From IMG/VR virus record IMGVR_UViG_3300019888_000004, positions 3,023-67,022 of that record: a stretch of DNA of 64,000 bases. One strand, 5' to 3'. This DNA comes from a virus. Below are positions 17,201 to 58,996 of this stretch, one piece after another. Within the stretch, counting starts at the first letter, position 1. Each line of letters opens with the position of its first letter. The notes beneath the pieces were generated by a model. It did no database searches, was not told the DNA's origin, and was given only the letters and a program-made list of their open reading frames with translations. The translations under genes were made by a program, and so were the position numbers.

Positions 17201-18140
17201 GGCCAAGCAACAGGCGGCGCTCGATGCGAAGGCGGCGAAACTCGGACTGGCACCGGGCGCCGTGCCCCGTCTGGACATCGCCGACATGCTTGGCATTGCT
17301 GCCGAAACCGCTTGGGCCGCCGCGCTGGGCGGGCGCACCGCCGGCGGTTTGCTCGGTTCGCTGACAGATCAGGGCACGTTCAACGCCAGCAAAAGCCTGG
17401 CTGCGACCGTCAGCCCGCTCGTGCCGGGACTGCCCGGCATCCAAGAGGCAACGCGGCTGGCCGGTGTCACGCTGGATAACAGGACAGCAACCGTCTTGGA
17501 TTTCATGCTGCCGTTGCCCACAAGCAAAGCCGCGAAAGTGAACATGCTCGGGGATCCCGCCGGTAATCAGAACGACGTGCAGCGGATCGTCCAAATCCTG
17601 ACCGGGGGCACATACCCAGGCATCACCGACACCCAGGCCGGCAAAGCCCGTGAAGGATATGCGGCACTGTTCAACACTGGCTACCGCCCGCCGTCCATTG
17701 ATCCCGGCAAGGGTTACGCTTTCGCGGACGCCTACCGCACCATGACCGACGCCGAGCTTGAGCGTTACAGCACCCTGCGCGGGCAGTATTTCAAGGCTGA
17801 ACTTGCTGGAATAGGGCCGGATGCCGACGTAAAAGCTGTCCGCCAGGCGTTTCAGACGGCCAACGCCCGCGCTCTGGGCGAATTGGGAGTGTCTCAACCC
17901 ACCTCGGCGGCGCAATCGCAGCAGGGCGCCCCACGCAGCGCACAAGGCACGGGCTTTGGCGCCGGTGTGGGGAGACTGGCGTTCGGCGGAAGGGTTGGAC
18001 TTGGGCGCTCACTCCGGCGCACGGGCCGATCCATTGGCCGGCGCTCAAGCAGGCTGGCGCGTGGACCAAGCTTGCGTTCGGCTCGCTCGCTCAGGCTGGG
18101 GAGTCGGTTTGGGAGAAATCGTGCGCTGACGGTGCGCTAA
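2292..18140 (+). CDS. giant DarB-like polyvalent virion protein (2H phosphoesterase, N6-MTase, SNF2 helicase, HExxH peptidase, C-terminal helical/TM region)
   Basis: 5282 aa; HITV/HLTI (about 4810 and 5030); ETSAGIG and NFPF (6720-6932); AHAVGTGKT (8857), DESH (9375), QRNGRAIRQG (10440); HELVH (12414); TM segment about 16950-17010. Confidence 0.9.
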   Translation: MPDFDLSDLGGVMVAPPEARPSLHDLSDLGGVPLAPRQPAADLSDLGGIPAQRPPLVPAPIPADLSRIPSGRVPIRLDAGLTRQLPPDYITPTPSDATASIGPDTRPPWDVTRDWIGEKLEPLTPKAKGFPSITAEDIANGNFAALLPGVDPETGESIRSLRTPGYEAPLAAKIGAGVERGVARTADVLAPWVIGGPVLGAATRAPLAGRAVSAVFAAQMAGGLPDTAKAFINAVENNDVQGAVETAVGGTLGAYFTYKAGQHALGRQQVPMTKMVDYNPQQVSEAFDRVNRGEGTPTDEAVAQFMGQFAQPLEAAGKGIKIPLPVLDESGEPQMRYVGLAEESPAIRRLLTKQITTEFTPDQIKDIYARVNTDQATPPEQELVRFINQAFEAPGEAVRKGVKVSTGEPRIESQFWRDYLGLKPGETTIELLRGGKKGTYASRKQSSVAQIGSQEAIGVSEARGGTGPPLPPIAGTGETAQRPFIAPPVVAPGSAPPELMEPKERHSAPNPQQDAAVADESNDSIVGRTNVGDERDKAFAERAKAATRLANTLRPGDKIVENDGTINTVESNLGNGVFHTEEGGVGVNLAILFIPHDANLTVGEGGRIMAGTTIPAAKIVRGNSAKDIHTQYAEASGHRKELRQAITDRKPVNTEAADAYGMQKSLAKNGYVREGDRYVFKATTAPAGQAVPDLTAVVGHLTMLAPDQFRAWRDGIGAGLPAMQQQLATIAPDALRNALAIATEQATQAQAQSRANPNGQTLQAYQDAAGKVQFFNETLAFAKPKATAPPKIPKSSTQLTLPNQHALPFHQFAQSIPDSEVYHKADETGKEDFGIETEPHITVLYGLTEHEPSAVAKIAAGSKPITVTLGKLSVFEQPDYDVLKVDVHGDDLRALNKEISKLPNEQTHPEYTPHLTIAYLKKGEGKKYVGDKRFNGMTLTFPSVTFSPPKEIRAVTGRHELPFTPPAKPAAKEPTGRSLRRGLIDVERQTKALQAERIQINRLLDEMQRRRDIGEYPLPSREAEDRLKQRLKVVEEQLFAQAKRPPAPTPSVALEPERAAADLTDFSDAEIESLLSAPEPATQKPPQPHKPAPSIPRPKAARKPPTAKESLGGAAKDLKDAMEEGMKGLDELFGGGTHVGALGPTFSEETYQKAKPHFKKAYEDCVNAGGKMSDFINAVLARFKKFGDAIKPYLKRFLQELRDGKIEINLKGKDESERQAGKRPLVPKPPGVAEGQSPGTVEGEAEGTVQGGGSGGAGGTPGSPSSPGKGRSVRPRDGGGAKRTTAGGEPAGEPDPDERPGVSEGAGDAEVRRGKDVAPTDNLRIQPGDKIVPDARSGRIQANLAAWALSKRLAAGDMLPTPSEKRILAQFSGWGDTFQVFGLTQINAHNTAADVYDEEKAGHQAYYILHNPKERESYEKWKKQYAAAYDTLKASLTPEEWKSASESSLNAHYTSRDGINAMWQIVERLGWPGGTAVETSAGIGHIIGLTPDALAGKVHWVGVELDKMSAQMLGQLYPASDIQNSAFEKSLRTENNSANLAISNFPFGDYPIADIAHPDYDGWSIHNYFLARSVDMVKPGGLVVAITSRYTMDGSDGQKMRRWLAERADMVGAIRLPNTAFKASAGTEVVTDILIFRKKAGIGNLVGERFTALANVEIPAANRAAQREGESPAEYQERISKPVMVNEYFAEHPEMVLGQHSTKGTMYSKDSYTVSPKTDKPLKAQLEEAVATLPQNIIHAEQDRIEAEDTGESLRTIKGRKTDSYVFEDGKVWQVDDQGRMQTPDWGESAAQAAKARQLIGLRDATLNQINLELDENSDDAALTAARKELNKLFDSFTAKHGALNDRKNNLIDDDPEWPLVASLEDERSDPVEIERGGRKVIRFVASYSKGPMLLRRVNFPHSEPAKADNLSDAVSISINYRGGIDAEYVGRMLAIPTEEARQRVLTEELAYENPANGLLEQPDLYLSGFVKEKLGAARRAQTTDDRFSRNVAALEKVQPKPLPADIIYFRLGSNWIASNQIQRFLRDVLEVDSSVMFVRAGDETRWIVGDPSRSSVANLSNYSAGGVAGHKLVEDSLNLKLTEVTDKIELLDVNGKPYEKTVVLPEETAAARDMQDRIQQAFRRWALESPQEAGEVEEVYNRLFNGMVRREYPVPKFDRFPGASNMVDLRDWQKRVAARAVQEGTLMAHAVGTGKTFSLITAAMEMRRLGTARKPLIVAKNATLTQFANSFRKLYPTARLLIGNSKATAAEKRNRFIARIATGDWDAVVVPTSFFERIDNDPAREQAYVHEQLAAIETAIREAEGENYTPGKKPKSTLGKALMRVLKRYEAKMDRIMQRLDKKSDDLITFEKLGVDALLVDESHDFKRGDFMTKMDRIKGLDSNGSDRAMDFLLKTQWIHMKSPDRNVVLATGTPISNTLAELWTALRYVRPGLLAKFNVSTFDDFVGTFAIPVATIEETPTGDFAQVLRLAKYVNGPEIGQLWRAGADVYVLNREDFKALGVNVPEIKGGAPREVVLERSEATGNFVDFLRDWRLWWEDLDGKDKAELSYVPILQYGLARKAAIDLRLVNPMLPDDPASKVNRVVNDAYNFWRDTKESSGTQLIFSNLQNSHDPDKRWLKEDLHLANPLYGKPVFNVFDDMRKKLVALGVPSGEIADFTNMTEPQRFSSMEQVQAGRIRIVFGSTESLGTGVNVQDHVVAVHHIDPQFRPMDFEQRNGRAIRQGNQNKEVELLVYGVKRTMDSTLYQLMLIKQKFIAQVMTADNLSREFEDPSDDSTMSFQAMAAAFSGNPVFAQRFALENEVRKLSILEEDWGRKRSDGRTELRTVQEGKAKFDDTVDVLRKAQAALTKAFSGDEFAVIYKDQSAAGDDGKKLLDKVLADAIAEMQTNLKEEFDAGELHQSHAKDIDAHKKRKFPEDYLLSLPTRERTRRFSINGVEFVIKLSQPSEIPLVKEKGALNLREPNGWWELKGHNTADWSPDKPWYNSVNEIHGHATTGSGLQTSLGHAIKVMGERLTTVDASRKRFDKVESDLKRELSKPFESANRLVEQRQKLEEVLAQLAASGAAVGQQAAPTMDEIVRKYPQLAYLTRQVQAEGNAELVAKFNAEDREKAKNAFYRRVSSGGFEIVKNARPVKLKGFEWMDAFVWQEKDTLKWRIADGATGMGMGSGDTADATKAKAEESLAANGEEQVRRVLRNAALNTGLTPRAKARDGENASIFSKFQEGALVVLERDKDRYIGPIKQINLDTGELVMEVNGNSVVVPARFVQLASKEEQAKWIEDRKVDPEGAASLTESEAQPSGPLNPERAAAVVQAWRKEIPNAPDVDIVNDPGMTRIGSDGLPYGVKALWDGQKIIVNLAFLPDEAALRGALEHELVHPLMDSPEGLQAIDEAIAAELGKDELDNLRRRYKQGASEAEDQYRRRIYAEWFARLKERSLSAWQRIIAAIRKFLAKLKLVKLTDEEIGRAILSRLQADARGPSGLQEGMASLGGALYQFYSRLTRTVEQSQQGKATGAQWKATIRNSKLGANMDEFALVGVNDLEDGKSYTKQEVLDYLRANEVVVKDVTLGGFNRTGFRVERGRQTTDPADQTWDVYDKDGRYLTSGLSEDGAWRALKEYVTRGRARIKELQAKWRDAGSGGLARSERAELTDLVNSDIEHAASDPTHFAQYQLPGSKEGSYREILLTVPERVGSVDWQNSGPIRLNLEVSGGGSRVVDSQQWKANINGADYTITYNPNVAAKYRLDGEKGGLQNARFGSLEEAKLRAQEGTNYKYSGRMTWRDGHSQYSAIANPIVRIRLNERTTSDGKKILFLEEVQPPQKGEFEKMPALFQKNWREIAFKWALQKAASEGYDSLGWTTGEQQAARYDLSEQVDNVIALRWADGWTIAVTGKDGKRFQPQEKQYKTESELAELVGKDLAAKIVKEVVTPYSEKEYSGIDLKVGGEGLKKLYGVDFRNVVNNLPAVKKSGQKVGTAEITVAPKRVFVRDEVNSIVLRKDVLNKVELIRSVWEMPGRTAEGWQNWNTALDQQADNVLSEMGHGSSYDKSIEQFGSQGLADKLGFGGTFDRESTTSPIHSLSITPQIRESVMGGQALFSLTGKPIRGHASLTDEPVQGMDVEEFEREIDQTLADEEGVPTVVMGHKDTVRGKPRLNQAAGVAMAKQVFDDAGLTVVARTDGFWQLADPTTSQEAAGQALLAKLKELNADPNSELFSAPGGAGGNLLNSVVVYMTGDDLQAFSAGLKRELYKAAQSERSHRGTMLAALRGGKQSVEYVAKHVDVMLNAQYAKEFGGPDIERVIKAGLEDFRGQFTDEELENALKDAPAFADLLKKLTGNNALEFLRRVFQLPFSQRRELRANAERLAVETLNVTPEMARTLGKEFEKTFDTMFDRATTHALSVLEKMLSAAERRRLGVGRRSGAWVKIVAAVKAGKFDAGYVLQRIAEAGGYTIPSEAEIAKVREMAERLDKLRKLPPEIAAAAGKDQAALRAAYRKFSAGTSERQTSLQRDIGTYWAKWTRPFTLRSGQGRANIVEGIYEFASANILAKIGFLTRQSFDVGPTAVMHIPFRSFANALVQHGGFRGASTAEFWQDANRLLRESVTGQSQALRAALREFREALKGTAEIKNVDRLLSGIALFERVGLKADELAAKGQPAQAFVLRLFGAIRFSYRFASAWDNLQGVPQEWQEIRSEAYREFRQRGMSPAEAAVAVDRIMPDVKADYLRAVEEARRYYELSEPDHAPSKSEIETGAWHILKGMAYQRMREAGMPADEYEQKNRLMRSTNAWNESMTGVVSPGGIISSTIKQFGELGKNVPIPFGALAAAFGRFGNAIGIGVDRALMYPLGFFPAAFGVPSKYIDPETGIASRGNPFMRTAEDRAQRKVEATVFSSIGLLIALLIMGGMVVYRGRWPRDKEERDIWDANGWRPGTAAIQLGDGKEIVVSTTVGPFAPLRPYMAAAGALVDAQTRKAKQQAALDAKAAKLGLAPGAVPRLDIADMLGIAAETAWAAALGGRTAGGLLGSLTDQGTFNASKSLAATVSPLVPGLPGIQEATRLAGVTLDNRTATVLDFMLPLPTSKAAKVNMLGDPAGNQNDVQRIVQILTGGTYPGITDTQAGKAREGYAALFNTGYRPPSIDPGKGYAFADAYRTMTDAELERYSTLRGQYFKAELAGIGPDADVKAVRQAFQTANARALGELGVSQPTSAAQSQQGAPRSAQGTGFGAGVGRLAFGGRVGLGRSLRRTGRSIGRRSSRLARGPSLRSARSLRLGSRFGRNRALTVR
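2304..2435 (+). repeat. three DLSDLGG peptide repeats at the N-terminus of the giant protein
   Basis: DLSDLGGVM / DLSDLGGVP / DLSDLGGIP. Confidence 0.85.
3610..3789 (+). CDS. nested +1-frame small basic phage protein (59 aa, MPLVSKAQWRKLAAKKP...LPERVK)
   Basis: AAGGA RBS before ATG; resembles recalled MPFKSKAQ...LPERV small phage proteins; host frame is low-complexity here. Confidence 0.6.
   Translation: MPLVSKAQWRKLAAKKPSVFQKLVAEQDRPYRRLPERVKQPKGRSLRRQSSRRGVRRRN
5932..6243 (+). CDS. nested +1-frame helical protein, DUF1896/TnpV-like
   Basis: GAAAGG RBS; WLRDNHPELL...ARGARSDLAMEVALSELLP; ends just before the MTase domain; host frame is a G/P/E linker. Confidence 0.6.
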   Translation: MNPSVRPENDPWFQSRLVWLRDNHPELLREKPKELFKAVDQAVQAARRVHHQALARGARSDLAMEVALSELLPVENPPENLIPMNDLEFQKVQGTLRSVAARM

Positions 18141-37623: not shown

Positions 37624-37793
37624 GTGAAACTAAGGAAGCGCGGCTTTGTGTCGGGTGCGGCCAGTTCAGAAAATTGCTCTGGTCAAACAAGCACAAGGAG
37701 TTCACATGCTTCCAATGTTTCCTCAAGCCAAAGTTGTTTTGAAGCCAATCGTCCTTAACACAATTCTGGGGCGGGCTGCCACGAGAAACGATG

Positions 37794-37940
37794 TTGACGG
37801 AATCCGGACTGTGAATATGATTCTGGCGTGCAACAGAACGTCAAATCTTCCTGCCGCTTCGGAACGGCTTACGCCTACACTCCGCTTTTTGCGGGACTGT
37901 TGCACACCGGGGCGGCGGGAACTTCAAAATGGTGCAACAG
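37794..37940 (+). ncRNA. promoter plus A-B-A'-B'-A leader, copy 5
   Basis: TTGACG-N16-TATGAT; GTGCAACAG (37828) / CTGTTGCAC (37897) / GTGCAACAG (37932); TTCCTGCCGCTTCGG/CCGGGGCGGCGGGAA. Confidence 0.7.
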
Positions 37941-38461
37941 TGAAAAAAATAGGAAGCAATCGGATTGGGATTATTTGTCCGCATTGTCATAAGAGCATAA
38001 CCCACTTCGTTTCCACCCACGGGAAATACAACACCCCGGAGTACCGAAGCTGGTTCGGGATGAAGTCCAGATGCCTTAACCCGAGAAATTACGGGTTCCG
38101 AAATTACGGCGGCAGAGGGATAACGGTCTGTAAAAAATGGATGGAGTTTGAGGGATTCATCGAGGACATGGGGTTAAAACCTTCTCCTGAATACAGCCTC
38201 GAAAGAATTGACAACAACGGCAATTATGAGGCTTCCAATTGTCGTTGGAGCAACAGGCAGGACCAAAACAACAACAGGAGAACAACCAGATTATTGTCCC
38301 ATGAAGGACAAACAAAAACACTGAGTCAATGGGCTGAACATATTGGAATTCACCAGTCTGGTTTGAGCAGAAGGTTGAATCAATTGGGATGGCCGTTGGC
38401 GCAGGCTCTTACAACTCCACCAAATTACGGAAACAGGCACCGCAATGGCAAAACCCATTGA
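37940..38461 (+). CDS. HNH homing endonuclease
   Basis: THG...EYRSW..MKSRC...YGGRGI...LERIDNNGNYEASNCRW. Confidence 0.9.
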   Translation: MKKIGSNRIGIICPHCHKSITHFVSTHGKYNTPEYRSWFGMKSRCLNPRNYGFRNYGGRGITVCKKWMEFEGFIEDMGLKPSPEYSLERIDNNGNYEASNCRWSNRQDQNNNRRTTRLLSHEGQTKTLSQWAEHIGIHQSGLSRRLNQLGWPLAQALTTPPNYGNRHRNGKTH

Positions 38462-38816
38462 ATTACATGCGGTGCTTGGTCGCGCGGCCACCAAATCCGA
38501 CGGCACCCTTTCGCTTATTTTCAGCACCGGCGAATTCAGTGCTGAAGAAATGGCCGTCTTGTTCAAGCTCCTTCGGATAAATCTTCTTCTCAGGCTGACT
38601 CCGCTCGGAGAATCACTTGAGCCGCCCGTGGAGGTAAAGACCGATATTCAGACCAAAACTCCATCTGCGCGGCTTCGCGGTGTGCTGTTTGTGCTCTACA
38701 AGCAGTTGGACGGGCAAGAATTAGTTAAGGGCAAATCCTTTGAATTATTTTACTCAGAACAAATGAACCGGGTTATTGACGATTTCAAAGCGCAACTGGA
38801 ACCAGAACAAGCATGA
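38445..38816 (+). CDS. conserved phage protein (recombination-module associated)
   Basis: KTPSARLRGVLFVLYKQ motif. Confidence 0.55.
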   Translation: MAKPIELHAVLGRAATKSDGTLSLIFSTGEFSAEEMAVLFKLLRINLLLRLTPLGESLEPPVEVKTDIQTKTPSARLRGVLFVLYKQLDGQELVKGKSFELFYSEQMNRVIDDFKAQLEPEQA

Positions 38817-38822
38817 TTTGAA

Positions 38823-38851
38823 TTGACACACGCAAGCCGCTTGCGCATAAT
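38823..38851 (+). promoter_or_regulatory. promoter with palindromic operator
   Basis: TTGACA-N17-CATAAT; CGCAAGC-C-GCTTGCG in the spacer. Confidence 0.75.
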
Positions 38852-38853
38852 CC

Positions 38854-39066
38854 ATGAATGATTCAGTCAAAACGTATCTCTCAAAAATTGGCCGTCGCGG
38901 CGGCAAGGCTGGCGTTGGAGCATCCAAAGCACGCCCACCTGTTCTCGCCCGAAAGGCGGCTAACACCCGATGGAAAAACAAAGTGTTGCATCGTGACGTG
39001 CGACAGGCCCGTAACCGGAAAAGGGCTGTGCGTGGGTCATTACGCAAGGTGGAAGTACAAATGTGA
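38854..39066 (+). CDS. basic GxxGG peptide (YLSKIGRRGGKAG...ARKAANTRW)
   Basis: KGG-like motif; overlaps the HNH gene in another frame. Confidence 0.6.
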   Translation: MNDSVKTYLSKIGRRGGKAGVGASKARPPVLARKAANTRWKNKVLHRDVRQARNRKRAVRGSLRKVEVQM

Positions 39067-39382
39067 ATTGAATCCAGACATTCCACTCGACAAAGCGCAA
39101 AACCATAAAGGCGCACTTAATGGGAATTGGAAGGGTGGAGAAATAAGCGATGGGCACGGCAGAATCTTAATTTATGCGCCTAAACATCCAAATCCTTCGT
39201 ACTGTGGAACGCACGTTTACCGCTATCGGCTCGTCATGGAGAAGTATCTTGGGAGGTTTCTGCTGCCGAGTGAAATTGTTCATCACAAAAATGAAGACCA
39301 GTCAGACGACAGAATCGAAAATTTAGAAGTGATGACTCAGGCGAAACACTGCAAGCTGCATCTACATCCAACGCAAAGGTAA
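38858..39382 (+). CDS. HNH homing endonuclease
   Basis: NGNWKGG...PKHP...RLVMEKYLGRFL...VHHKNEDQSDDRIENL. Confidence 0.85.
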   Translation: MIQSKRISQKLAVAAARLALEHPKHAHLFSPERRLTPDGKTKCCIVTCDRPVTGKGLCVGHYARWKYKCELNPDIPLDKAQNHKGALNGNWKGGEISDGHGRILIYAPKHPNPSYCGTHVYRYRLVMEKYLGRFLLPSEIVHHKNEDQSDDRIENLEVMTQAKHCKLHLHPTQR

Positions 39383-39386
39383 AAGA

Positions 39387-40106
39387 ATGAGCCATGTGAT
39401 TTTCTTCGATTTAGAAAGTGCCGCATTCGACGCGGAACAGCTTCAACCGTTCATGCCCGAGTTTCTCCCGGCTGGGAATTTGAAAGACCCGGACAAGATC
39501 GCGGCTAGCATAGCCGAGAAGCGCGAGGCGTGGCTGTCCCGGTGCGCGTTGTCGGCCACAACGGGCCGCATCATCGCAGCCAGCATCGCGAGAAACAGCG
39601 ATGTGCCCGAGTTCATCTACGCCCCGGATGAACGCACCATTATTGACGTGCTGCTCCACGATCTGTCCGAAACTATTGCTTTGGGCGGGACTGCGTTCGG
39701 TTGGAACAGCCACGGATTCGACCTGCCGTTTCTGGCACAGCGTGCAGCGTCTCACGGCATCCCAGCCTTCACACTGCTCACGACCAGCTTTCGCGGCAGG
39801 CGTTCCTGGAACGAGGTGTTTGCGGATGTGATGCAGGTCTGGTGCGGGCCTTACAACCGTAGTGACGGCATGAGCCTGAAAAATGTGGCCTTGGCGCTGG
39901 GAGTTGGCACCAAGGCCGGTAGCGGGTCGGACTTTTCCGAATTACTCAAGAGTGATCCCGTCAAAGCCAAGGAGTATTCTCTGAATGATGTGGTGTTGTT
40001 GAGAAACATCGCGGTAAAAATGGGACTGGCTGATCTCACACCCCCGCCTCGCCCGAAGCTCACGCCGCTCAAAGAGCCGGAAGAACCGACGGACGTGGGG
40101 CATTGA
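39387..40106 (+). CDS. DEDD 3'-5' exonuclease (PolB/DnaQ-like)
   Basis: FFDLES, GWNSHGFDLPFL, YSLNDV. Confidence 0.8.
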   Translation: MSHVIFFDLESAAFDAEQLQPFMPEFLPAGNLKDPDKIAASIAEKREAWLSRCALSATTGRIIAASIARNSDVPEFIYAPDERTIIDVLLHDLSETIALGGTAFGWNSHGFDLPFLAQRAASHGIPAFTLLTTSFRGRRSWNEVFADVMQVWCGPYNRSDGMSLKNVALALGVGTKAGSGSDFSELLKSDPVKAKEYSLNDVVLLRNIAVKMGLADLTPPPRPKLTPLKEPEEPTDVGH

Positions 40107-40304
40107 ACACATGACCAAATTCCCTGCCATGACACCGCCAACCAGCCCTTCGGAAGTCGGAGGGCGGGGCACGGATAAAAAGAAGAAGTGCCGCGTCGTG
40201 GCAGGTTTCCGAATCAAGCCTCCGAAAATCGAAGGAGACCGATGGATTGTGCAATCCCGCAGCCGCTCGGGACGATGGGAAACGCGAATTACTACGCACT
40301 GCCG

Positions 40305-40556
40305 ATGAAAAATAAACGTCGAATTTCTCGCAAAGCCGGATGCCGAAAGCGAACCTGCGGTTTGCTGCATCCGGCGGCTGGTTCGGCGGAAACGTCGAGC
40401 GACACAAAACTGTGGCGGCGATACCGGCTCACTCATGTCACGGTCGCGTGGCAGGAACGATACGGTGAACATTGGTATGACTACTCGAAGAAAATCACGC
40501 ATGAGGACTTCCTGAAGCACTACTCACAAGTGCCGCCCGCCGAACGACAAAGCTGA
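40305..40556 (+). CDS. cassette ORF, hypothetical
   Basis: starts inside an attC-like loop and ends in the next site. Confidence 0.45.
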   Translation: MKNKRRISRKAGCRKRTCGLLHPAAGSAETSSDTKLWRRYRLTHVTVAWQERYGEHWYDYSKKITHEDFLKHYSQVPPAERQS

Positions 40557-40574
40557 GCGGCGCAACGAAGACCC

Positions 40575-40772
40575 ATGAACAAACCTGAAAGCGTAAATGC
40601 GTCCGCTCCAGCGGCGGACGACCGATGCCGCGAACTCGAAAAGCGCATAGCCGAGCTAACGAAACTGTGCCATCGCGCCGGAGATGCAATGGACGCCGCA
40701 CTGACCTGCCCCAACGATGCGGGATACCGCGCCGATGCCGCCGATGCCGTGGAAGAACTTCAAGCGGTGTAG
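40575..40772 (+). CDS. cassette ORF, hypothetical coiled coil
   Basis: starts inside an attC-like loop. Confidence 0.45.
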   Translation: MNKPESVNASAPAADDRCRELEKRIAELTKLCHRAGDAMDAALTCPNDAGYRADAADAVEELQAV

Positions 40773-40799
40773 GACCCCTAACGACCAAGCTCACCGACC

Positions 40800-41165
40800 A
40801 TGCGAATAAAAACCAAAACCGTAATGGACCAAATGAACGCCGAGAAGCCAGACGGCGTGCTCGCAGACCTGGAGGCTAAGCATGGTTCGGTGCAGCGGCT
40901 GGTTAGCCCGCTTCCGTGCCCGTTCTGTGGCTCGACGAAAATCACAGTCGAATGGGAGGAATGCGAGCCACTCGACTCGACAGACACAAACCGTCGCTGG
41001 TTCGCGGAATGCGCTCAATGCTGTTGCCAAGGTCCATTTTGCCAGAAAGAACCGCAGGTCATACCGGCGTGGAATAAGCGGGCTAACAGGGGATTAACCG
41101 TCGCAAACGACGGGATATTGGATGGGCCAAGCACGAATCACCCACCAAACACGTCGAAGGTTTAG
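40800..41165 (+). CDS. Lar-like restriction-alleviation Zn-ribbon protein (cassette)
   Basis: PLPCPFCGS...EC..C...GP...AWNKRA. Confidence 0.7.
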   Translation: MRIKTKTVMDQMNAEKPDGVLADLEAKHGSVQRLVSPLPCPFCGSTKITVEWEECEPLDSTDTNRRWFAECAQCCCQGPFCQKEPQVIPAWNKRANRGLTVANDGILDGPSTNHPPNTSKV

Positions 41166-41183
41166 ACCGGCACTTGCGGTTCG

Positions 41184-41372
41184 TCAGGAAATCCCGAGAC
41201 GATCACGCGCAGCTTGTTTCTCGGCTGCGGGGGTCGCAGCGTCCACTTGCGCGAGAAAGTCGCTCAAATCTTGCGGTGTCGGCTTCCAGCCTTCCGGCTT
41301 GTTCGCGTGCTCTGCCCAAATTTGGATAAGAGTGTTGATGCCAGTTCCGACGAGAGTAAGAATGCTGTCCAT
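41184..41372 (-). CDS. small lysis-cassette-like protein
   Basis: amphipathic N-terminus, follows the lipoprotein. Confidence 0.4.
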   Translation of the reverse strand: MDSILTLVGTGINTLIQIWAEHANKPEGWKPTPQDLSDFLAQVDAATPAAEKQAARDRLGIS

Positions 41373-41373
41373 G

Positions 41374-41733
41374 TCAGTTTGGTTTGAGGGTTAGAGTCAG
41401 CTTGTCCGCGCCTGCCTTCACCTCAGCGGGCGGTGCGGCACTCCAGTTCTGGCCCGCAGCGACCAAAGCTGTTCGAAAGGTACTGCGGAAGGCGTTCCAC
41501 GCCAAATCCGCTTGAGCCTCCTGATCCTTCGTGACTTTGCCTTGCACGACGCGCTCACAGAACGCGCCATAGGCGGCATGGGCGACATTCCAGGTGTCTT
41601 TGAGAGAATGGTAGGCGATTGCCTCTTTTGTGTCCGTCGTCGAGCAGCCGACAAGCCCGACGGTTGACAACGCGACCGGCAAGGCGGTGGCACAGAGCAG
41701 GACGGACAGGACGACAGATCGGAATCGTTTCAT
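41374..41733 (-). CDS. lipoprotein (spanin-like)
   Basis: signal peptide and LVGC lipobox. Confidence 0.6.
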   Translation of the reverse strand: MKRFRSVVLSVLLCATALPVALSTVGLVGCSTTDTKEAIAYHSLKDTWNVAHAAYGAFCERVVQGKVTKDQEAQADLAWNAFRSTFRTALVAAGQNWSAAPPAEVKAGADKLTLTLKPN

Positions 41734-43323
41734 GGCTTCAATTTGCCACCGGCGGGCTGGATTGGCAACCCTGGGGTTTTCACGATCCAACATCGCGCCT
41801 CGCACCACGCTTCCCATGCGAGTTGCACGGCGATGTCTTTGTATTGGTCGGGCCACGCGTGCGTGGTTTCGTCTTGCGGCCAGCGTTCTGTTTCGCGCTC
41901 ATACGGCGGGCCTGCAACCCATTGTTCAAATGACGACCGCGCAGAACCTTGGTCGATCTCGGACAGAGCTTGGTCGTATGTTGGCAGCCCACATGTTGCT
42001 TCGCCGTTCATCTGTTTCCTTTTCGTCGCGCCAACTGATAGTTTCTTTGCTCGTCCCGCTCGTCCGCTGGACGCGGCAACGGGTTGGGAAGTTTTGTTCG
42101 GCGACGGCGGGCAAGCGCGTCATACGCGCGAAGTTCCGCTTTTGTCATTCGCCTATTCACACCTGTCCCGATGTTGTAAATAGTCACGCCTTCGTCTCCA
42201 TTAACGCATCATGCACCGCCATATGCCGCAGAATGTGCCGCGCCTGTTCCTGCCACGGCTCATTCGATCCGACGAGCACCGGCAGCGAGTATTTCACGCG
42301 GACGAGGTAGCAGACATACGGCCACTCAGTATCTAATACCGCGCAGTCCGCCTTGTATTTCCACCAAAACAAGTCTGGAGACGATTGAAGAACGCGAATC
42401 TGGTCAGGCAAGAGCCACGCCAGTTCGGCCTGCAACTCGTCGTCTGAAATGTCGGTCAACATCAATCCTTAAGCGCCACAGCGCCGACTTTACGAAAGCC
42501 GGAAATTATTCAGTAGCAGTTTGCCATTCTTTCCGCTCGCGTTGGGTGCTGCAAGTCTTCGATCTCCTTCTCAAGTTCTTTGATCTCCTCCTCAAGCTCT
42601 TTGATCCTCGCCAACGCTGCGGTCAGCAACGAAGCTGTTTGAATATAGTCCACTTCCCAGGTCAAGAGTTTTTCAGGCGACTGAATCGCTATAGGAGCTT
42701 CTTTAATCTCTCTTTCCAGATTCGTCATTCTGCCGCCTTGCTCTCTGGTAACTGTCGCACGGGAACAGCGTCTCCCACGGGGATGTTTCCGGCGGCCAGG
42801 ATTCCATCACTGATCGCCCCAATCAGCGCCTTGTTGTGCCCGTCGGAGTTTGGGCTGTACGCGTCCTCGTAATACGCAAACAGGTCCATAAAGGCCAGGC
42901 GCGCCTGCAATGTCCATTTGTCGTTCTCGGAGGCGCGTGTGAGCTTGGCTTTGAGTTCAGATGGGAACAACACGTTACCACGAACCGCTTCAATCAGGTT
43001 GTTGCGGCAGGACGAACTCAGGTGCAGGCCCGCGCGCGGATATTGTCGGAACGTCTGCACAAGCCTGCTCTCGACCACCAACTTCAAAGTCTCGGGTGTC
43101 ATTGAGTGGAGTCTGGGATTGTTGCTTTTGCCACATCGTCAACGTGGAGACATTCCTTGAGATTCGGCATCACGTCTGATGGAGACGTTGGCGCAATCCT
43201 TCCGTTGCATGTGTCGTTGCCGGCGACAGCGTCGTAAAGAATCCCAGCCACCGGCGCGCCGTAGGAAGGAATCAAAACAACCTTATCTCCGTTCTTCGCT
43301 TCTCTGCCGTTTTTGTAGTGCAT
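41730..43323 (-). other. run of small hypothetical genes (41730-42011, 42184-42465, 42510-42728, 42725-43102, 43099-43323)
   Basis: coupled ORFs; the 43099 gene begins MHYKNGREAKNGD. Confidence 0.5.
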
Positions 43324-51040: not shown

Positions 51041-54000
51041 CTATCTCACGCAAACCGCCAAGCCTGCCCTGGCGCCGGTGGCGAACCTCGGAATTGCCTC
51101 AAGTTCGTCGGCAAGTTCCATCAAAAGCGCGTAGCTCACGGCGTCAAAAATGTGTTTTGAATCCTGCCCCGCCGCGACGAAGTTGATCCGGCTGGATGGG
51201 TTGCCCACGGGCGCTCGACCCTTCTTCAAATCGTTCAGCATCTTGATCGTGTAGTGGCAATGCGCTGAAACCTTGATCCGGTCGAACGCCAGAAGTTGCT
51301 GCAAAAGCTGGACGCGCGCCATCATCGTGCCGCGCGGCTTCGGCACTCCAATCAGCACGATGCGACCGAGTGACACGGCGTTGATCTGAACGGCAGGGAA
51401 CGTATCTGCCGTCGCCGAGTACATCGTGACTGCGCTCAAATCCGAGTAGGCTTTTGAGAGATCGAACTTCCTGCCCGCCTGTTCTTCCAAATCGGCGATC
51501 AGGTCCATGAAGTTGTTCGTGAATTCTTCCAGCGACATTTCGGTGTGCAGGCTGACGAGTTCGTCAATGACGGTGAAGTGCGCGCGGCTGATGGTGGTTT
51601 TCGTCTTGGGCAGGTACTGCGTGTAATTCTGCCGCTCGATGATGACGGCGGCGTGGTTGGTTTCGCCGGTGTCCCACCCGGTAATCAGTTCGTAGCAGTT
51701 GTTCGTCGGGTTGGCGAATTCCCATGCGTCCTCGTCCTGGCCGTCCACGTTGCCGACGACGTGAATGTTGGGCTTGAAGAAACGGCGGAAGTGCAGCGAT
51801 GTTTCACCGCTGCCGTAAACCCACTTGCCCTCGACGAACCGCGCGTAAAGACCAGGATCGTAGGAGTACGTGCCTTTCAGTTCTTCAAGCTGGCCGGGCT
51901 TCAAGCGTTCGTTGTCCTCAGCCTGCATTTCGATGACGCGCGTGTTCTGTTTGAAGTTCAGGAACGTGGCCTCGCCCATTGCCGGTCGGCCAAGCTTTAC
52001 CTGCCGGTCGCGGTACTCCTCGTAGGTCAGCTTCGGCTCGATGTAGAACGCTTCATAAATCCACGAGTTCTCGCCTTCGTCGGACGGGTTGGTATCAGCC
52101 AGCCACATCTGCTGCTTGAAGTCCAGGTAGGGCATTCGCAGGCACATCAGGCCGAGACTCAGCACCGCGCGCGTGTAAAAGTTGGAAAGCTCGCTGAAAT
52201 AGATCAGGCTGAACTCGCGCTCCTTCAGAATGGATTCGGCGTCGTTGTCGTTGAGCAAGGAAAACAACATGCACTCGGACTCGCCTCCGTGAAGGTTGGT
52301 CACGCGAAAGAACGGCGTGCGCGTTGTGCCGTCAACCTTTGGACCCACCTTGTCATCGTAGTTGCGCGTCGTGAATCTCATTCCAATCCCTGATTGAATC
52401 CATTCCTTCAAAGTATAGTTTTCAAGATTTTTCCAAGCGCCAGCATCCTTTGAGTTCTTCAACACTCTCGAAAACATTGCGACGCGAGCATTTGGAGTTT
52501 CCCACAAGTGGCGAGCAATGCGGTGGAGCGCCGACCATGAATTGTGATTCACGAATCCGTTCCCAATGAAATTATGAAATCGCGGAACGGATAAATCGTA
52601 AAGGTTCACCTGGCACGGCGTTGCAGACACAACGGCTTCCCATGCTACTTTTCCTTCCAAGAAATATCTATTTAGCACCTCGTCGTCTTGAGACAACGAA
52701 AACGCCATCAGGCGTCTTAACTTTTCGGATGACACTGATCTTCCGCTTGATTTGCAGTATAATCCAGCAGAGCTTTTACCACTTCCGCGAGGAATCGTTC
52801 CCCTTGGCGCCCCTCTTGAGTGTCTCGATAGATAGGCACGCCTAACCTCGGTTCTGATCTCTGGCGGGTAATCCATTGGCTCTTGCAGGTATTTAATAGT
52901 TACAGCGCCTTTTGCTTGTTTTCTGAGCAATCGAAATCCGACCGTTTTGTAAAATAGCCGAGCGTTTTGTCCGTAGATTCCGACCTTCCAATAACCTCGG
53001 TGATTGTTTTCATGGCGTGTCCGCGAGCTTTCTATTCCGAACGCCAGGAGAATCTGATGAACGTCGCAGGCCAGGGATTCGCTCGTGCTGGCAAACGAAG
53101 CGGTTCCCAAACGCCCCATGCCGTCGGTGTCAAATAAGCCCTGCAACAAGGCTTTTAACACTGGCTCTGGAGACTCTATCAAACAGTCGGGGATTCGCTT
53201 GTTAAAGAAATGGACGCCAAGATGCAGGTGTCTGACTAAGGCGATCAACGAAAGGGAGGCGATTTTCCAACCATACGGACCAGATTTGTTGAGTGTGTGA
53301 TCCGGGAAATGCTCCTTCAAGATTTCTCTTACAGCCTCGACAATCTCAGAATCAGCCGTGCTAAACAGGACGCAGCTTTTGGATAAACACGTCTCCGTCA
53401 TACATCCGTCTCCGATCAGAATTCCAATAAGGTAGGCCAAGGATTGATTGAGCGTCAGGTGGTGTTGTTTGATTTTTTTCCGCTCGTTGAAAAAAGAGCG
53501 CACGGCCCTTACCTGAGTTTTTGCCGCTGCCGCTATTTGGCTCACATTTGAGCATTCTCCGGCTTCAACAATGGCAGCGATCCTGTCGTGCGTGGCCGCA
53601 ACGCGGTGTTCCCGCTTGTCCACGGACATGAAGTTGAGCACAAGGCAATCAAAGTCTCGCCACGCGGCTCCTTTTACCAACGGTAGCCAGACGCGCTTTC
53701 CGCTTTCGACCAGCGATTTGATTTCGGTGGAGTTCCTGTAATTGAACACGCCGTCGCAGAAAGACCACACGGGATGCCACGGGGAAACTTTTATTGAATA
53801 GCCAAAATCAGTCACCAGCTTGATCCCGCACTTGTGATCGTTACGAAATACCGCATCAATCGCAGCGGTCGAGAAGCGTGACTGCTGAACATCAAGGGCT
53901 GTTACAGTGTGGCCGTGGCGCATTGATGAAATGCGCTTTAGCGCGCCGTCACAATGCACGATTGTGTCTGCGTCAACACATTTCCCACTGAGGCGGCCAC

Positions 54001-54094
54001 CCGACAGAAGCAGTGCTCGTTCGTACGAATTAAATACCGACCACTGGACGCCAAAGAGATTTGGCAGCCAAATGCGATTGGGTTCTTCAGGCAC
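51041..54094 (-). CDS. terL: terminase large subunit with intein
   Basis: GGRLSGK[intein]S Walker A; FSEL Walker B; DTNP; GWDTG nuclease; HIFDAVSY. Confidence 0.9.
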   Translation of the reverse strand: MPEEPNRIWLPNLFGVQWSVFNSYERALLLSGGRLSGKCVDADTIVHCDGALKRISSMRHGHTVTALDVQQSRFSTAAIDAVFRNDHKCGIKLVTDFGYSIKVSPWHPVWSFCDGVFNYRNSTEIKSLVESGKRVWLPLVKGAAWRDFDCLVLNFMSVDKREHRVAATHDRIAAIVEAGECSNVSQIAAAAKTQVRAVRSFFNERKKIKQHHLTLNQSLAYLIGILIGDGCMTETCLSKSCVLFSTADSEIVEAVREILKEHFPDHTLNKSGPYGWKIASLSLIALVRHLHLGVHFFNKRIPDCLIESPEPVLKALLQGLFDTDGMGRLGTASFASTSESLACDVHQILLAFGIESSRTRHENNHRGYWKVGIYGQNARLFYKTVGFRLLRKQAKGAVTIKYLQEPMDYPPEIRTEVRRAYLSRHSRGAPRGTIPRGSGKSSAGLYCKSSGRSVSSEKLRRLMAFSLSQDDEVLNRYFLEGKVAWEAVVSATPCQVNLYDLSVPRFHNFIGNGFVNHNSWSALHRIARHLWETPNARVAMFSRVLKNSKDAGAWKNLENYTLKEWIQSGIGMRFTTRNYDDKVGPKVDGTTRTPFFRVTNLHGGESECMLFSLLNDNDAESILKEREFSLIYFSELSNFYTRAVLSLGLMCLRMPYLDFKQQMWLADTNPSDEGENSWIYEAFYIEPKLTYEEYRDRQVKLGRPAMGEATFLNFKQNTRVIEMQAEDNERLKPGQLEELKGTYSYDPGLYARFVEGKWVYGSGETSLHFRRFFKPNIHVVGNVDGQDEDAWEFANPTNNCYELITGWDTGETNHAAVIIERQNYTQYLPKTKTTISRAHFTVIDELVSLHTEMSLEEFTNNFMDLIADLEEQAGRKFDLSKAYSDLSAVTMYSATADTFPAVQINAVSLGRIVLIGVPKPRGTMMARVQLLQQLLAFDRIKVSAHCHYTIKMLNDLKKGRAPVGNPSSRINFVAAGQDSKHIFDAVSYALLMELADELEAIPRFATGARAGLAVCVR
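52541..53980 (-). mobile_element. intein with LAGLIDADG endonuclease (480 aa)
   Basis: N-terminal CVDADT, C-terminal YDLSV..HNF..NG..NHN followed by Ser; LIGILIGDG and LLQGLFDTDG. Confidence 0.93.
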
Positions 54095-57543: not shown

Positions 57544-57836
57544 TACAAATTGTTCAAGTGCCATTTTCAGACCCAGACCGTCAAACACTGCATGACTGGT
57601 TGAATGCGCCCGGACGACTGCTCTACCAGCGATTCCTTTCGAGCCAGGCCAGCGAGATGATGGCCACCGCCGCGAACGTCAGAGTGCGCAACGAGCAAGG
57701 CGACAAAGAAGATTCGGAACTGCTCACCGATCAGGCGCGTGTCATCGTGGCCGCGAACAAAGCGTTCGATCAAGTGTTGACGAAAGAGTTTAAGTTCTAT
57801 TGCGTGGAACTACGCCCTGAAACGCCCGCAAAATGA
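57540..57836 (+). CDS. hypothetical head-module protein
   Basis: AGGAGG RBS, coupled. Confidence 0.55.
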   Translation: MIQIVQVPFSDPDRQTLHDWLNAPGRLLYQRFLSSQASEMMATAANVRVRNEQGDKEDSELLTDQARVIVAANKAFDQVLTKEFKFYCVELRPETPAK

Positions 57837-57874
57837 TGATTGACCTTGCAGATACGTTGAGTCCATCGTGTCCA

Positions 57875-58996
57875 ATGATTCGCGCCGTGCGCATTTCTCT
57901 TTCCGAAGCGACCGCTTCCAAACAGCGCCGTCTTCAATCCGTTCTGAGGGAACTTCGCTCGGCTGCTAATTTCTACGCACGGTCAATCTGGAAAGAAAAA
58001 GGTAAATTGGATGCGGAGACACATGGGCGGTACAAAAACGGATCGCTTAACTATAGCCAGCGAAATGCGGCTCTGAAATTCGCTCTGGATTCAGTCATTT
58101 GCGCAAAGAGCTTTGGGAAACAATTAAATTGTCGCGTAAGATGCCCGGTATTCAGGAATGCGCTTCGCCTCTCAAAACTTGTTTGCAGAATAGAACAAGG
58201 TAAGGGCTGTTTCGATTATGTGATGAAGGTTACTTCAATGAGGCTGCGTGAACCCTTGGTTCTTCCATTCAAGTCGCACGAACGATTGAACTACTGGTTG
58301 GCGAAGGGTGGAAAGATTCTTGATGGAGCAATCATAAGCTCCACGATGGCGGCATGGATTTACGTCGAACTCCCGGACGAGCCTGCCAAAACCGAAGGGG
58401 ACATCGTTGGATTGGACACCGGCTATAAAAAGTTGCTCACCGACAGTAATGGCAACTTTTATGGGAGAGACATCGGCGACATTGTGCAGAAAATTCGGCG
58501 CAAGAAACCAGGATCAATCGCCAAGCGCAAGGCGCGGGTGGAGCGCCAAGATTACGTCAATTTCGTCTGCCGCCGTTTGCCGTGGCAGACCGTCAAAACT
58601 TTCGTCCTCGAAGACCTGACCGGAATGAAAGTCGGTAAAGGTAATCGAGGGAAACGAAACCGCAAGCTGCTCGCTCCCTGGAGCTATCGGCAGGTGAGAA
58701 CAAGGCTGGAACAACTCGCGCCGGAGAACCGTGTTCGTCTGGAATTCGTCAGCCCTAAATTCACTTCCCGAATATGCCCCTCGTGTGGGTGGGAGAGCGC
58801 GAAAAACAGGGTGGGAGAGAAGTTCTGCTGTCTGCGATGCAACTACACAGCCGACGCCGACTTTGTCGGAGCGCGGAACATTCTCGCAAAGTTCACTACC
58901 ACTGGAAACTGTCCGGAGCGTACGGTCCCGGTCGGAGATTGCGGAGAACTACTGTGCGGGAAGAAGAAGGAAGAACCTTATGCCCAAAACGCTTGA
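57875..58996 (+). CDS. tnpB: TnpB-family RNA-guided nuclease (no TnpA nearby)
   Basis: VGLDTG, VLEDL, TSRICPSCG...C..C, ADFVGARNI; leaderless TTGACC-N18-CATCGT promoter. Confidence 0.88.
   Translation: MIRAVRISLSEATASKQRRLQSVLRELRSAANFYARSIWKEKGKLDAETHGRYKNGSLNYSQRNAALKFALDSVICAKSFGKQLNCRVRCPVFRNALRLSKLVCRIEQGKGCFDYVMKVTSMRLREPLVLPFKSHERLNYWLAKGGKILDGAIISSTMAAWIYVELPDEPAKTEGDIVGLDTGYKKLLTDSNGNFYGRDIGDIVQKIRRKKPGSIAKRKARVERQDYVNFVCRRLPWQTVKTFVLEDLTGMKVGKGNRGKRNRKLLAPWSYRQVRTRLEQLAPENRVRLEFVSPKFTSRICPSCGWESAKNRVGEKFCCLRCNYTADADFVGARNILAKFTTTGNCPERTVPVGDCGELLCGKKKEEPYAQNA

Follow-up and report, generated by a model that had tools for sequence, protein, structure and literature searches.

A probable integron-type cassette array with reversed genes in a soil phage record

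The stretch of DNA analysed here (the window) consists of 64,000 nucleotides (nt), bases 3023-67022 of the 67,022-base IMG/VR virus record IMGVR_UViG_3300019888_000004, which CheckV rates as 93% complete. Our principal finding is that positions 40335-41098 of this window very probably represent an integron-derived cassette array without an integrase (CALIN), in which the + strand is the recombinogenic bottom strand; that the array is truly one of attC cassettes is, in our judgement, just as probable. One cassette carries a Lar-like restriction-alleviation gene. The same family of attC sites occurs in other viruses and in bacteria, and the recognisable genes of the viral cassettes all lie on the bottom strand and start in the attC loop, whereas those of the bacterial cassettes are mostly on the canonical strand. 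An initial annotation of the window had described an integron-type array with reversed genes in this region; overall, that first reading was largely right and is supported, and the sequence strings it quoted were all found where it had placed them.

The array and its sites

The features of the array, all on the + strand, are as follows.

40776-40908, +: attC site 1, intact, 133 nt, with bottom-strand geometry (structure scan and covariance model)
40539-40624, +: attC site 2, 84-86 nt (script scan with 0 mismatches; covariance model, span 40539-40622)
40335-40387, +: decayed attC remnant, the third site (inverted repeat I7, direct repeat D10)
40782-41086, +: cassette 1, the Lar cassette, from the C of AA/C in site 1 to the AA of GGCTAA/C (the stroke marks the proposed point of cleavage)
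40545-40781, +: cassette 2, with an open reading frame (ORF) of 65 amino acids (aa) at 40575-40772 that starts in the loop of site 2
40381-40544, +: body of cassette 3, a remnant, within ORF 40242-40556
41085-41098, +: attI-like junction, AAC followed by AGGGGATTAAC, at the integrase-proximal end of the array
40800-41165, +: Lar-like restriction-alleviation ORF, 121 aa (PF14354, phrog_599)

In the account of the attC bottom strand given by Nivina 2016 (PMC5027507), the AAC of R' pairs with the GTT of R'', unpaired spacers of 5-6 nt follow, and the whole measures 57-141 bp; extrahelical bases stand opposite the AAC arm, beginning with one at position 16 that is usually G and ending with a conserved T at position 23 or 24, with a 6-bp stem between them. 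On the + strand, the 5' half of site 1 reads CCCTAAC (40776-40782), GACCAA and GCTCACCGACCATGC (40789-40803), after which comes a 76-nt loop; the 3' half reads GCATGG[T]TCGGTG[C]AGC (40880-40896), GGCTG and GTTAGCC (40902-40908). AAC is on the 5' arm, and the spacers GACCAA (6 nt) and GGCTG (5 nt) are unpaired. Counted from the 3' end, the 7 nt of R'', the 5 nt of spacer and 3 bp lead to an extrahelical C at position 16, and a further 6-bp stem leads to an extrahelical T at position 23, both on the 3' arm; these are the two extrahelical bases reported at the outset, the bulged C40893 and T40886. The boxes CCCTAAC and GTTAGCC each match the consensus (RYYYAAC and GTTRRRY) at six of seven positions. 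Judged by that published account, site 1 has in common with canonical attC its R box, spacers, extrahelical bases at 16 and 23, variable loop and length, and differs in that C replaces G.

The other two sites are less complete. Site 2 comprises R' GCCGAAC, the spacer GACAAA, the stem GCT/GAGCGG/CGCA, a 33-nt loop with an ATG at 40575, the arm TGCG[T]CCGCTC[C]AGC and the spacer GGCGG. Its bulged stem is perfect, yet ACGACCG stands where GTT is expected and the AAC/GTT pairing is not found; without GTT in R'' the R box cannot form, and so the site is probably inactive. The remnant retains a short hairpin without bulges (arms 40335-48 and 40362-75), then GGCTG and the R'' box GTTCGGC (40381-40387), and gave no covariance model match at E<=10; the repeat D10, GCGGCTGGTT, which lies within it, has a second copy at 40895. 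The extent of the array had been recognised in part: the region of site 1 was correctly identified, and the second full site at 40539-40622 and the attI-like end had been overlooked.

Complementarity of the cassette ends, which had also been pointed out, is perfect at both of the predicted places. In cassette 1, GTTAGCCCGCTT (40902-13) and AAGCGGGCTAAC (41076-87) are 12-nt reverse complements (inverted repeat I9); cassette 3 starts with GTTCGGCGG (40381-40389) and ends with CCGCCGAA, and its ends are 9-nt reverse complements (CCGCCGAAC at 40537-45). Canonical cassettes, as described in Nivina 2016 (PMC5027507) and Cury 2016 (PMC4889954), share this complementarity of R'' to the R' at the other end, and share with the relatives of our array the presence of IntI beside it. 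Neither the 65-aa ORF of cassette 2 nor ORF 40242-40556 around cassette 3 has a Pfam or PHROG family match, or a relative among the compared loci.

At the integrase-proximal end, the pattern AACAGGNGATTAAC occurs once in the window against an expectation of 0.03, and AGGGGATTAAC matches the sequence between the last cassette and the start of intI in phage G011 (AGGTGATTAAC). The attI-like 14-mer has a sole match among 144 loci, 23 nt upstream of intI in that phage (L100 3143-3156), and a shorter 12-mer has one additional match over 263 loci, in L193. On the thin evidence of these two sequences, 41085-41098 may be an attI remnant. Profiles TIGR02249 and PF00589 match nothing in the 67,022-base record, and tblastn of two phage IntI proteins against it gave a best E of 0.28, so the earlier statement that the window has no IntI extends to the whole record. 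With two covariance model matches (sites 1 and 2) 154 nt apart and no integrase, the locus falls under the CALIN definition as given in Cury 2016 (PMC4889954); a complete integron would have intI, and attI by the first cassette, and the record holds no intI.

The features of the sites do not, on their own, go beyond chance; it is comparison with relatives that lifts them far above it. The fold energy of the site is ordinary whether it is folded as DNA (z -0.97, 36/200 shuffles as stable) or as RNA (z -1.19, 24/200), the RNA fold of the + strand making the same stem, and fold energy does not discriminate these sites. A loose architecture scan (3 bp, bulge, 6 bp, bulge, stem) produced dozens of chance matches in the window and, being too permissive, was replaced by strict criteria. 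For a covariance model, R1, we used 38 of 39 bacterial sites taken from loci with an IntI homologue (within 8 kb of integrase genes), having removed one AT-rich row. The model recovers site 1 at full length (40776-40908, +; 54.6 bits, E 1.8e-10) and site 2 over 40539-40622 (+; 31.6 bits, E 3.7e-5), and its next-best match in the window, at 12.9 bits (E 0.74), is noise.

Relatives of the sites and the strand of their genes

A pattern confined to the flanks of the site (AACGACCAAGCT, N45-75, T, N6, CAGCG, NNNK, GTT) has matches in 46 viral stretches and at least 119 bacterial genome stretches; the bacterial carriers among the matches listed belong to the Planctomycetota, Cyanobacteria, Abditibacteriaceae, Verrucomicrobiota, Acidobacteriota and others. 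A strict script picked out 186 hairpins flanked by AAC/GTT boxes from the viral loci; T/C bulges are present in 114 of these and spacers of 6 and 5 nt in 91. From the bacterial loci it picked out 243, with T/C bulges in 200. A 6-mer that the flank pattern leaves unspecified offers a non-circular test of pairing, and it is perfectly complementary in 30 of 41 distinct viral matches, where the chance is 1 in 4096 for each. Complementarity of cassette ends is complete (7/7) in 37/59 viral and 69/95 bacterial pairs of adjacent sites, against a chance of 1 in 256. When 77 sites are aligned, all 13 stem pairs have changes on both sides; the 99% pairing figure of the same alignment is circular, since the sites were chosen by pairing.

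Individual loci illustrate the arrangement. The 3.2-kb contig L011 has seven sites on one strand, all of them where two genes meet. For five of the six successive pairs, the 7-nt box after one site is the reverse complement of the box before the next, which is the mark of cassettes that were once in circular form. Nucleotide homology around Lar, to four viral loci and to metagenome contigs, is limited to 40884-41087; upstream of Lar, L002 and L011 have another sequence, which repeats the stem layout of site 1 and both of its bulged bases.

Integron integrases were present in two of the 44 related viral records tested: a complete 66-kb genome (L137; TIGR02249 312.4 bits, cut-off 265) and a 37.8-kb genome with terminal repeats (L136; 229.3 bits against the same cut-off). 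In both, the sites lie immediately upstream of the integrase gene and on its sense strand, which is the canonical layout. Bacterial loci have IntI homologues of 27-46% identity within 8 kb of the sites, and the layout is canonical in 12 of the 16 loci with both IntI and sites and of the inverted-integrase type in three. In L146, L186 and L221, which are bacterial, the sites follow the IntI gene at its 3' end and are on the strand opposite to it, presumably the 'inverted integrase' layout reported for Planctomycetes and spirochaetes. The structural rules, the covariance model and the occurrence of the family beside IntI genes in two phage genomes and in bacterial loci together bear out the attC identity first proposed.

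The strand of the cassette genes was determined by a Pfam search with the longest ORF of each cassette on each strand, with the following result.

Viral cassettes, bottom strand: 11 families among 59 ORFs
Viral cassettes, top strand: 0/59
Bacterial cassettes, top strand: 77 families among 95 ORFs
Bacterial cassettes, bottom strand: 5 families among 95 cassettes

That the genes run opposite to the usual cassette polarity, as had been claimed for the window, is therefore true of all Pfam-recognisable genes in the viral cassettes. The viral families are Dam, D12, MT-A70, C5 methylase, Methyltransf_11, PAPS reductase, Lar, DUF551, DUF7128 and two zinc ribbons; the recognisable viral cargo is anti-restriction, with DNA methyltransferases and Lar as its main items. 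On the top strand, the bacterial families are those typical of integron cassettes; those on the bottom strand are DUF5131, DNA methylase (2 families) and IS110 transposase (2 families). These few bottom-strand matches are phage-like (DUF5131, N6/N4 DNA methylase), and the bacterial contigs may here contain reversed cassettes of the phage type, or prophages. The per-strand search and the comparison of viral with bacterial sites replaced two counts that proved too noisy in GC-rich DNA, namely ORFs issuing from the hairpin with an opposite-strand control (75/98 vs 63/98) and the longest ORFs of viral cassettes (36 vs 23). At 76/98 viral sites, as against 51/192 bacterial sites, an ORF of 40 aa or more that starts with ATG runs out of the loop through R''. 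The viral cassette ORFs often stop within the next site (with the TGA in AAGCTGA, for instance), and the reading frame through the 3' arm varies from cassette to cassette, from which it follows that what is conserved is the nucleic acid and not a peptide.

The Lar-like ORF of cassette 1 scores 26.2 bits with PF14354, just under the gathering cut-off of 28.6, and matches phrog_599 with E 1.4e-9; its relative in L011 matches PF14354 with E 9.4e-8, and its relatives are 62-84% identical to it. The first 36 codons (40800-40907) are within the attC site, and the last 26 residues are encoded past the cassette boundary. All in-frame starts (ATG 40800, 40824 and 40833; GTG 40890) fall inside 40776-40908, in agreement with the earlier proposal of a gene start inside attC, and there is no start codon between R'' and the first cysteine of the zinc ribbon. 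Lar leaders have 5-9 residues in relatives without a recognisable site of the family (L009, L004) and 20-39 in the cassette forms. The Lar of the Rac prophage (PF14354, phrog_599) has the same small four-cysteine zinc-ribbon core, CPFCG...C..C...AWN.R; the window protein, whose function is predicted from sequence, would add to this a leader of about 36 residues encoded by attC and the 26-residue tail. In L013, the region upstream of Lar (1070-1210) has an intact attC 3' arm with the matching 5' arm missing and a GCTAAC-GAC box about 110 nt upstream, so that the site looks broken or hybrid. Five metagenome contigs with distant Lar relatives (L039, L065, L041, L058 and L069) have sites of other attC-like types with the same bulge layout and different L boxes (GTT...AAC, GAT...ATC), and IntI homologues, 39-42% identical, occur in L039, L019 and L036; it would therefore seem that integrons commonly carry Lar-like genes.

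How the cassettes may have moved

We propose that an IntI-family recombinase cutting at AA/C would have inserted and reshuffled these cassettes, and that it would be supplied in trans by the host or by a co-infecting phage. The sites are of attC type and would be recombined as a folded single strand. The loop would hold the start codon, the 3' arm and R'' would encode an N-terminal leader, and the gene would read towards attI. Such a gene, lying on the bottom strand with its start in the loop and directed towards attI, would be expressible by read-through of a phage operon, transcribed in the + direction, rather than from the promoter Pc. The source of the integrase may be the host; it could equally be a phage-borne IntI like those encoded in 2/44 of the related viral records.

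Where arrays share a cassette, homology ends at 0 nt from AA/C between L011 and the window, L092 and L100, and L106 and L121, and at 2-4 nt from it between L011 and L092; that of cassette 1 to L011 covers 40884-41087 and ends precisely at AAC in both. In an all-against-all blastn of the arrays, 5/85 unique homology ends were within 10 nt of AA/C, small numbers for which the high-scoring segment pairs (HSPs) were then inspected singly. In phage G011 (L100 1867-1880), GCCGAAC closes a methyltransferase cassette, and the ATG of the gene that follows comes 7 nt on with no hairpin; this might be a cassette boundary minus its attC, or two fused cassettes. The homology of L092 ends precisely at this AAC.

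Several observations weigh against the proposal. The record has no integrase, and 8 of 14 near-complete related viral records are without any tyrosine recombinase. A single site among three is intact, site 2 being without GTT and site 3 without bulges and without R'; even in site 1, R' and R'' each depart from the consensus at one position, five of seven R-box pairs are formed, and the first extrahelical base is C where attC usually has G. Model R1 and the bacterial site set were fetched with a phage-derived flank pattern and represent one attC subfamily, not the general model of IntegronFinder. The phage status of the window is the label of the collection, the terminase hint is weak (15.3 bits) and five large ORFs have no PHROG match. 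Between relatives, the usual starting point of homology, at +60 to +100 nt, is the 3' arm or R'' and not AA/C, which means that a gene is not faithfully accompanied by its 5' arm and loop; in L013, a 3' arm from another site type stands before Lar. Starts in the 3' arm fit homologous exchange within sites as well as they fit IntI and, taken with the hybrid in L013, they indicate that homologous exchange within conserved sites probably contributes.

The strongest alternative concerns the present and not the origin of the array. An ancestor could have gained the cassettes by integron recombination and the copy in the window could now be fixed, an evolutionary fossil whose hairpins persist as coding sequence and as mRNA structure around the starts; we regard this as a substantial possibility that falls somewhat short of an even chance. 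The loss of GTT from R'' of site 2, the decay of site 3 and the want of an integrase in the record are all as expected of a fossil, as is the identity across the array of records 6 and 7 of run X3, contigs that come from another sample and another study. The Lar ORF also continues for 26 codons past the cassette boundary, so excision would truncate Lar, which again counts in favour of fixation. However, the intact site 1 and the attI-like junction bracket the Lar cassette and would suffice for attI x attC excision, and Lar is found in different arrays among relatives. The stretch is present in four public soil-metagenome runs from two studies, as contigs only, with no joints, variants or loose ends listed, and contigs cannot reveal rare excision variants. 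Current mobility of the copy in the window, as judged from its sequence, seems nearly balanced, and perhaps slightly disfavoured.

A second alternative is that cassettes are shuffled by ordinary homologous recombination between conserved parts of the sites and that IntI has no present role in phages. Homologous recombination between promoter-stem-loop repeats has been proposed for T4-type phages. Whole sites are 76-93% alike between unrelated contigs, with HSPs of about 100-112 bp that run from -10 to +100 of AA/C, and this, the frequent start of shared-cassette homology inside the 3' arm, the coupling in L013 of another site type's 3' arm to Lar, and the 35/44 related viral records without a tyrosine recombinase would all be accounted for. 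It would leave unexplained why several homology ends are exactly on AA/C, why 37/59 viral cassettes have retained the 7-nt box complementarity, the sign of a circular intermediate, why two phages have an IntI-family gene beside the array, and why the positions of bulges and spacers are conserved although homologous recombination has no need of them. As a full explanation we consider it unlikely.

It is very improbable that the hairpins are RNA elements only, acting in translation control or mRNA processing between early genes, with a convergent likeness to attC. Such a role would agree with a start codon in the loop at most viral sites and with the RNA fold of the + strand, which gives the same stem; but the same site family bounds canonical cassettes of the opposite strand beside IntI in bacteria, the chained complementarity of R boxes has no RNA rationale, and the frame of the 3' arm differs between cassettes. 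Among other elements considered, IS200/IS605-type ends, RNase III sites and single-strand promoters were rejected, as none accounts for the chained AAC/GTT boxes or the linkage to IntI. Inverted repeats arising by chance in GC-rich coding DNA, to which the ordinary fold z-scores, the many chance hairpins that fit the loose architecture and the near-expected frequency of motif AACGACNAAGCT at <=2 mismatches (25 matches vs 17.4) might point, have a negligible probability and are ruled out by the 6-mer complementarity test and the covariance model matches to sites 1 and 2, with more than 100 family members having covarying stems.

Genomic setting and biological meaning

The record presumably derives from a soil phage, in which genes from about 33 kb to 41.2 kb are on the + strand and those that follow are on the - strand. 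The genes that precede the array, or belong to it, are these.

37646-38461, +: HNH endonuclease
38858-39382, +: HNH endonuclease
39387-40106, +: PolB-exonuclease-like gene
40111-40308, 40242-40556 and 40575-40772, +: small ORFs

The array is placed at the 3' end of the presumed + strand early/replication operon, directly past the PolB-exonuclease-like gene. By tblastx, L103, a complete 58.6-kb phage genome with terminal repeats, has at least five sites that come after a homologue of this exonuclease gene (about 45% identity); with the same order in both, the position of the array is common to the two phages and the cargo is different. A search for relatives of the exonuclease gene in viral contigs gave no match, and neither did blastn of 38400-42500 against sequenced phages. 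Past the array, the non-cassette ORF 41374-41856 matches L102 (E 1.1e-05), and a 93-aa ORF at 41730-42011 (-), some 650 nt further on from the array, is 63% identical to a relative at L102 3152-3352 that directly abuts the attC array of that phage.

A PHROG scan of ten window ORFs, mostly large, left six without a match; the four matching ORFs are a transposase-like ORF, an HNH endonuclease and two members of families of unknown function. The terminase and capsid families sought in the record yielded a single sub-threshold terminase hint, in a 1,017-aa ORF at 51041-54094 (-; Terminase_6N 15.3 bits, E 3e-4), which is the sole virion-type signal. The 387-aa ORF at 57833-58996 (+) matches PHROG transposase families (phrog_506, E 1.3e-22) and is the only recombinase-like gene noticed in the window; it is not a tyrosine recombinase. 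A single open frame of 5,282 aa at 2292-18140 (+) takes up roughly one quarter of the record. Nothing turned up in the window when it was scanned for Rfam families and tRNAs.

CALINs in phages are already published. Qi 2023 (Front Microbiol, PMC9892861) described 17 CALINs, as well as integrons, in sequenced phages; their cargo included methyltransferases and their sites were IntI1-competent, and in that description phage CALINs share with our array the possession of two or more attC sites without IntI, a cargo rich in orphan DNA methyltransferases that is read as anti-restriction, and the idea of phages drawing on the integron cassette pool. The two main examples in that paper have the typical cassette orientation, and its text mentions neither bottom-strand genes nor starts within attC, nor any reversed or opposite orientation of cassettes or genes; its 17 CALINs also compare with a single attC subfamily in 46 viral stretches here. 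Canonical ORFs, in the accounts of Nivina 2016 and Cury 2016, stop before attC and read away from attI, whereas the viral ones lie on the bottom strand, start in the loop and read towards attI and intI. In the published literature we found no account of reversed cassettes starting in attC (the supplement to Qi 2023 may list related sites), and none of Lar in integrons or of integrons linked to restriction alleviation.

There is a parallel to the reversed genes elsewhere. The toxin-antitoxin cassettes of sedentary chromosomal integrons are in reverse orientation. Like the viral cassettes they would be expressed independently of Pc; they are, however, a minority with internal promoters, whereas all recognisable viral cassette genes here are reversed and start in the attC loop. 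Toxin-antitoxin cassettes with their own promoters are described in sedentary chromosomal integrons in the account of Richard 2024 (PMC13108822).

Integrons are known as bacterial devices, and clusters of attC sites in phages have been described only recently and in small numbers. It is an evenly poised question, in our estimation, whether phages keep a back-to-front cassette pool of their own, in which the attC loop is a portable start module and expression is by read-through towards attI (and intI where present), based on the attC family that chromosomal integrons in Planctomycetota, Cyanobacteria, Abditibacteriaceae and others also use. If they do, the same integrases could serve phage and host, the attC family being shared, while the cargo is separate and oppositely oriented: anti-restriction methyltransferases and Lar in the phages, and ordinary integron cargo in the bacteria. 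Integron integrases would then take part in the arms race on both sides, with anti-restriction genes in phages and defence genes in bacterial arrays. The attC site would gain a second role as a translation-start module, and the unannotated small genes of the arrays would constitute a catalogue of candidate anti-defence genes.

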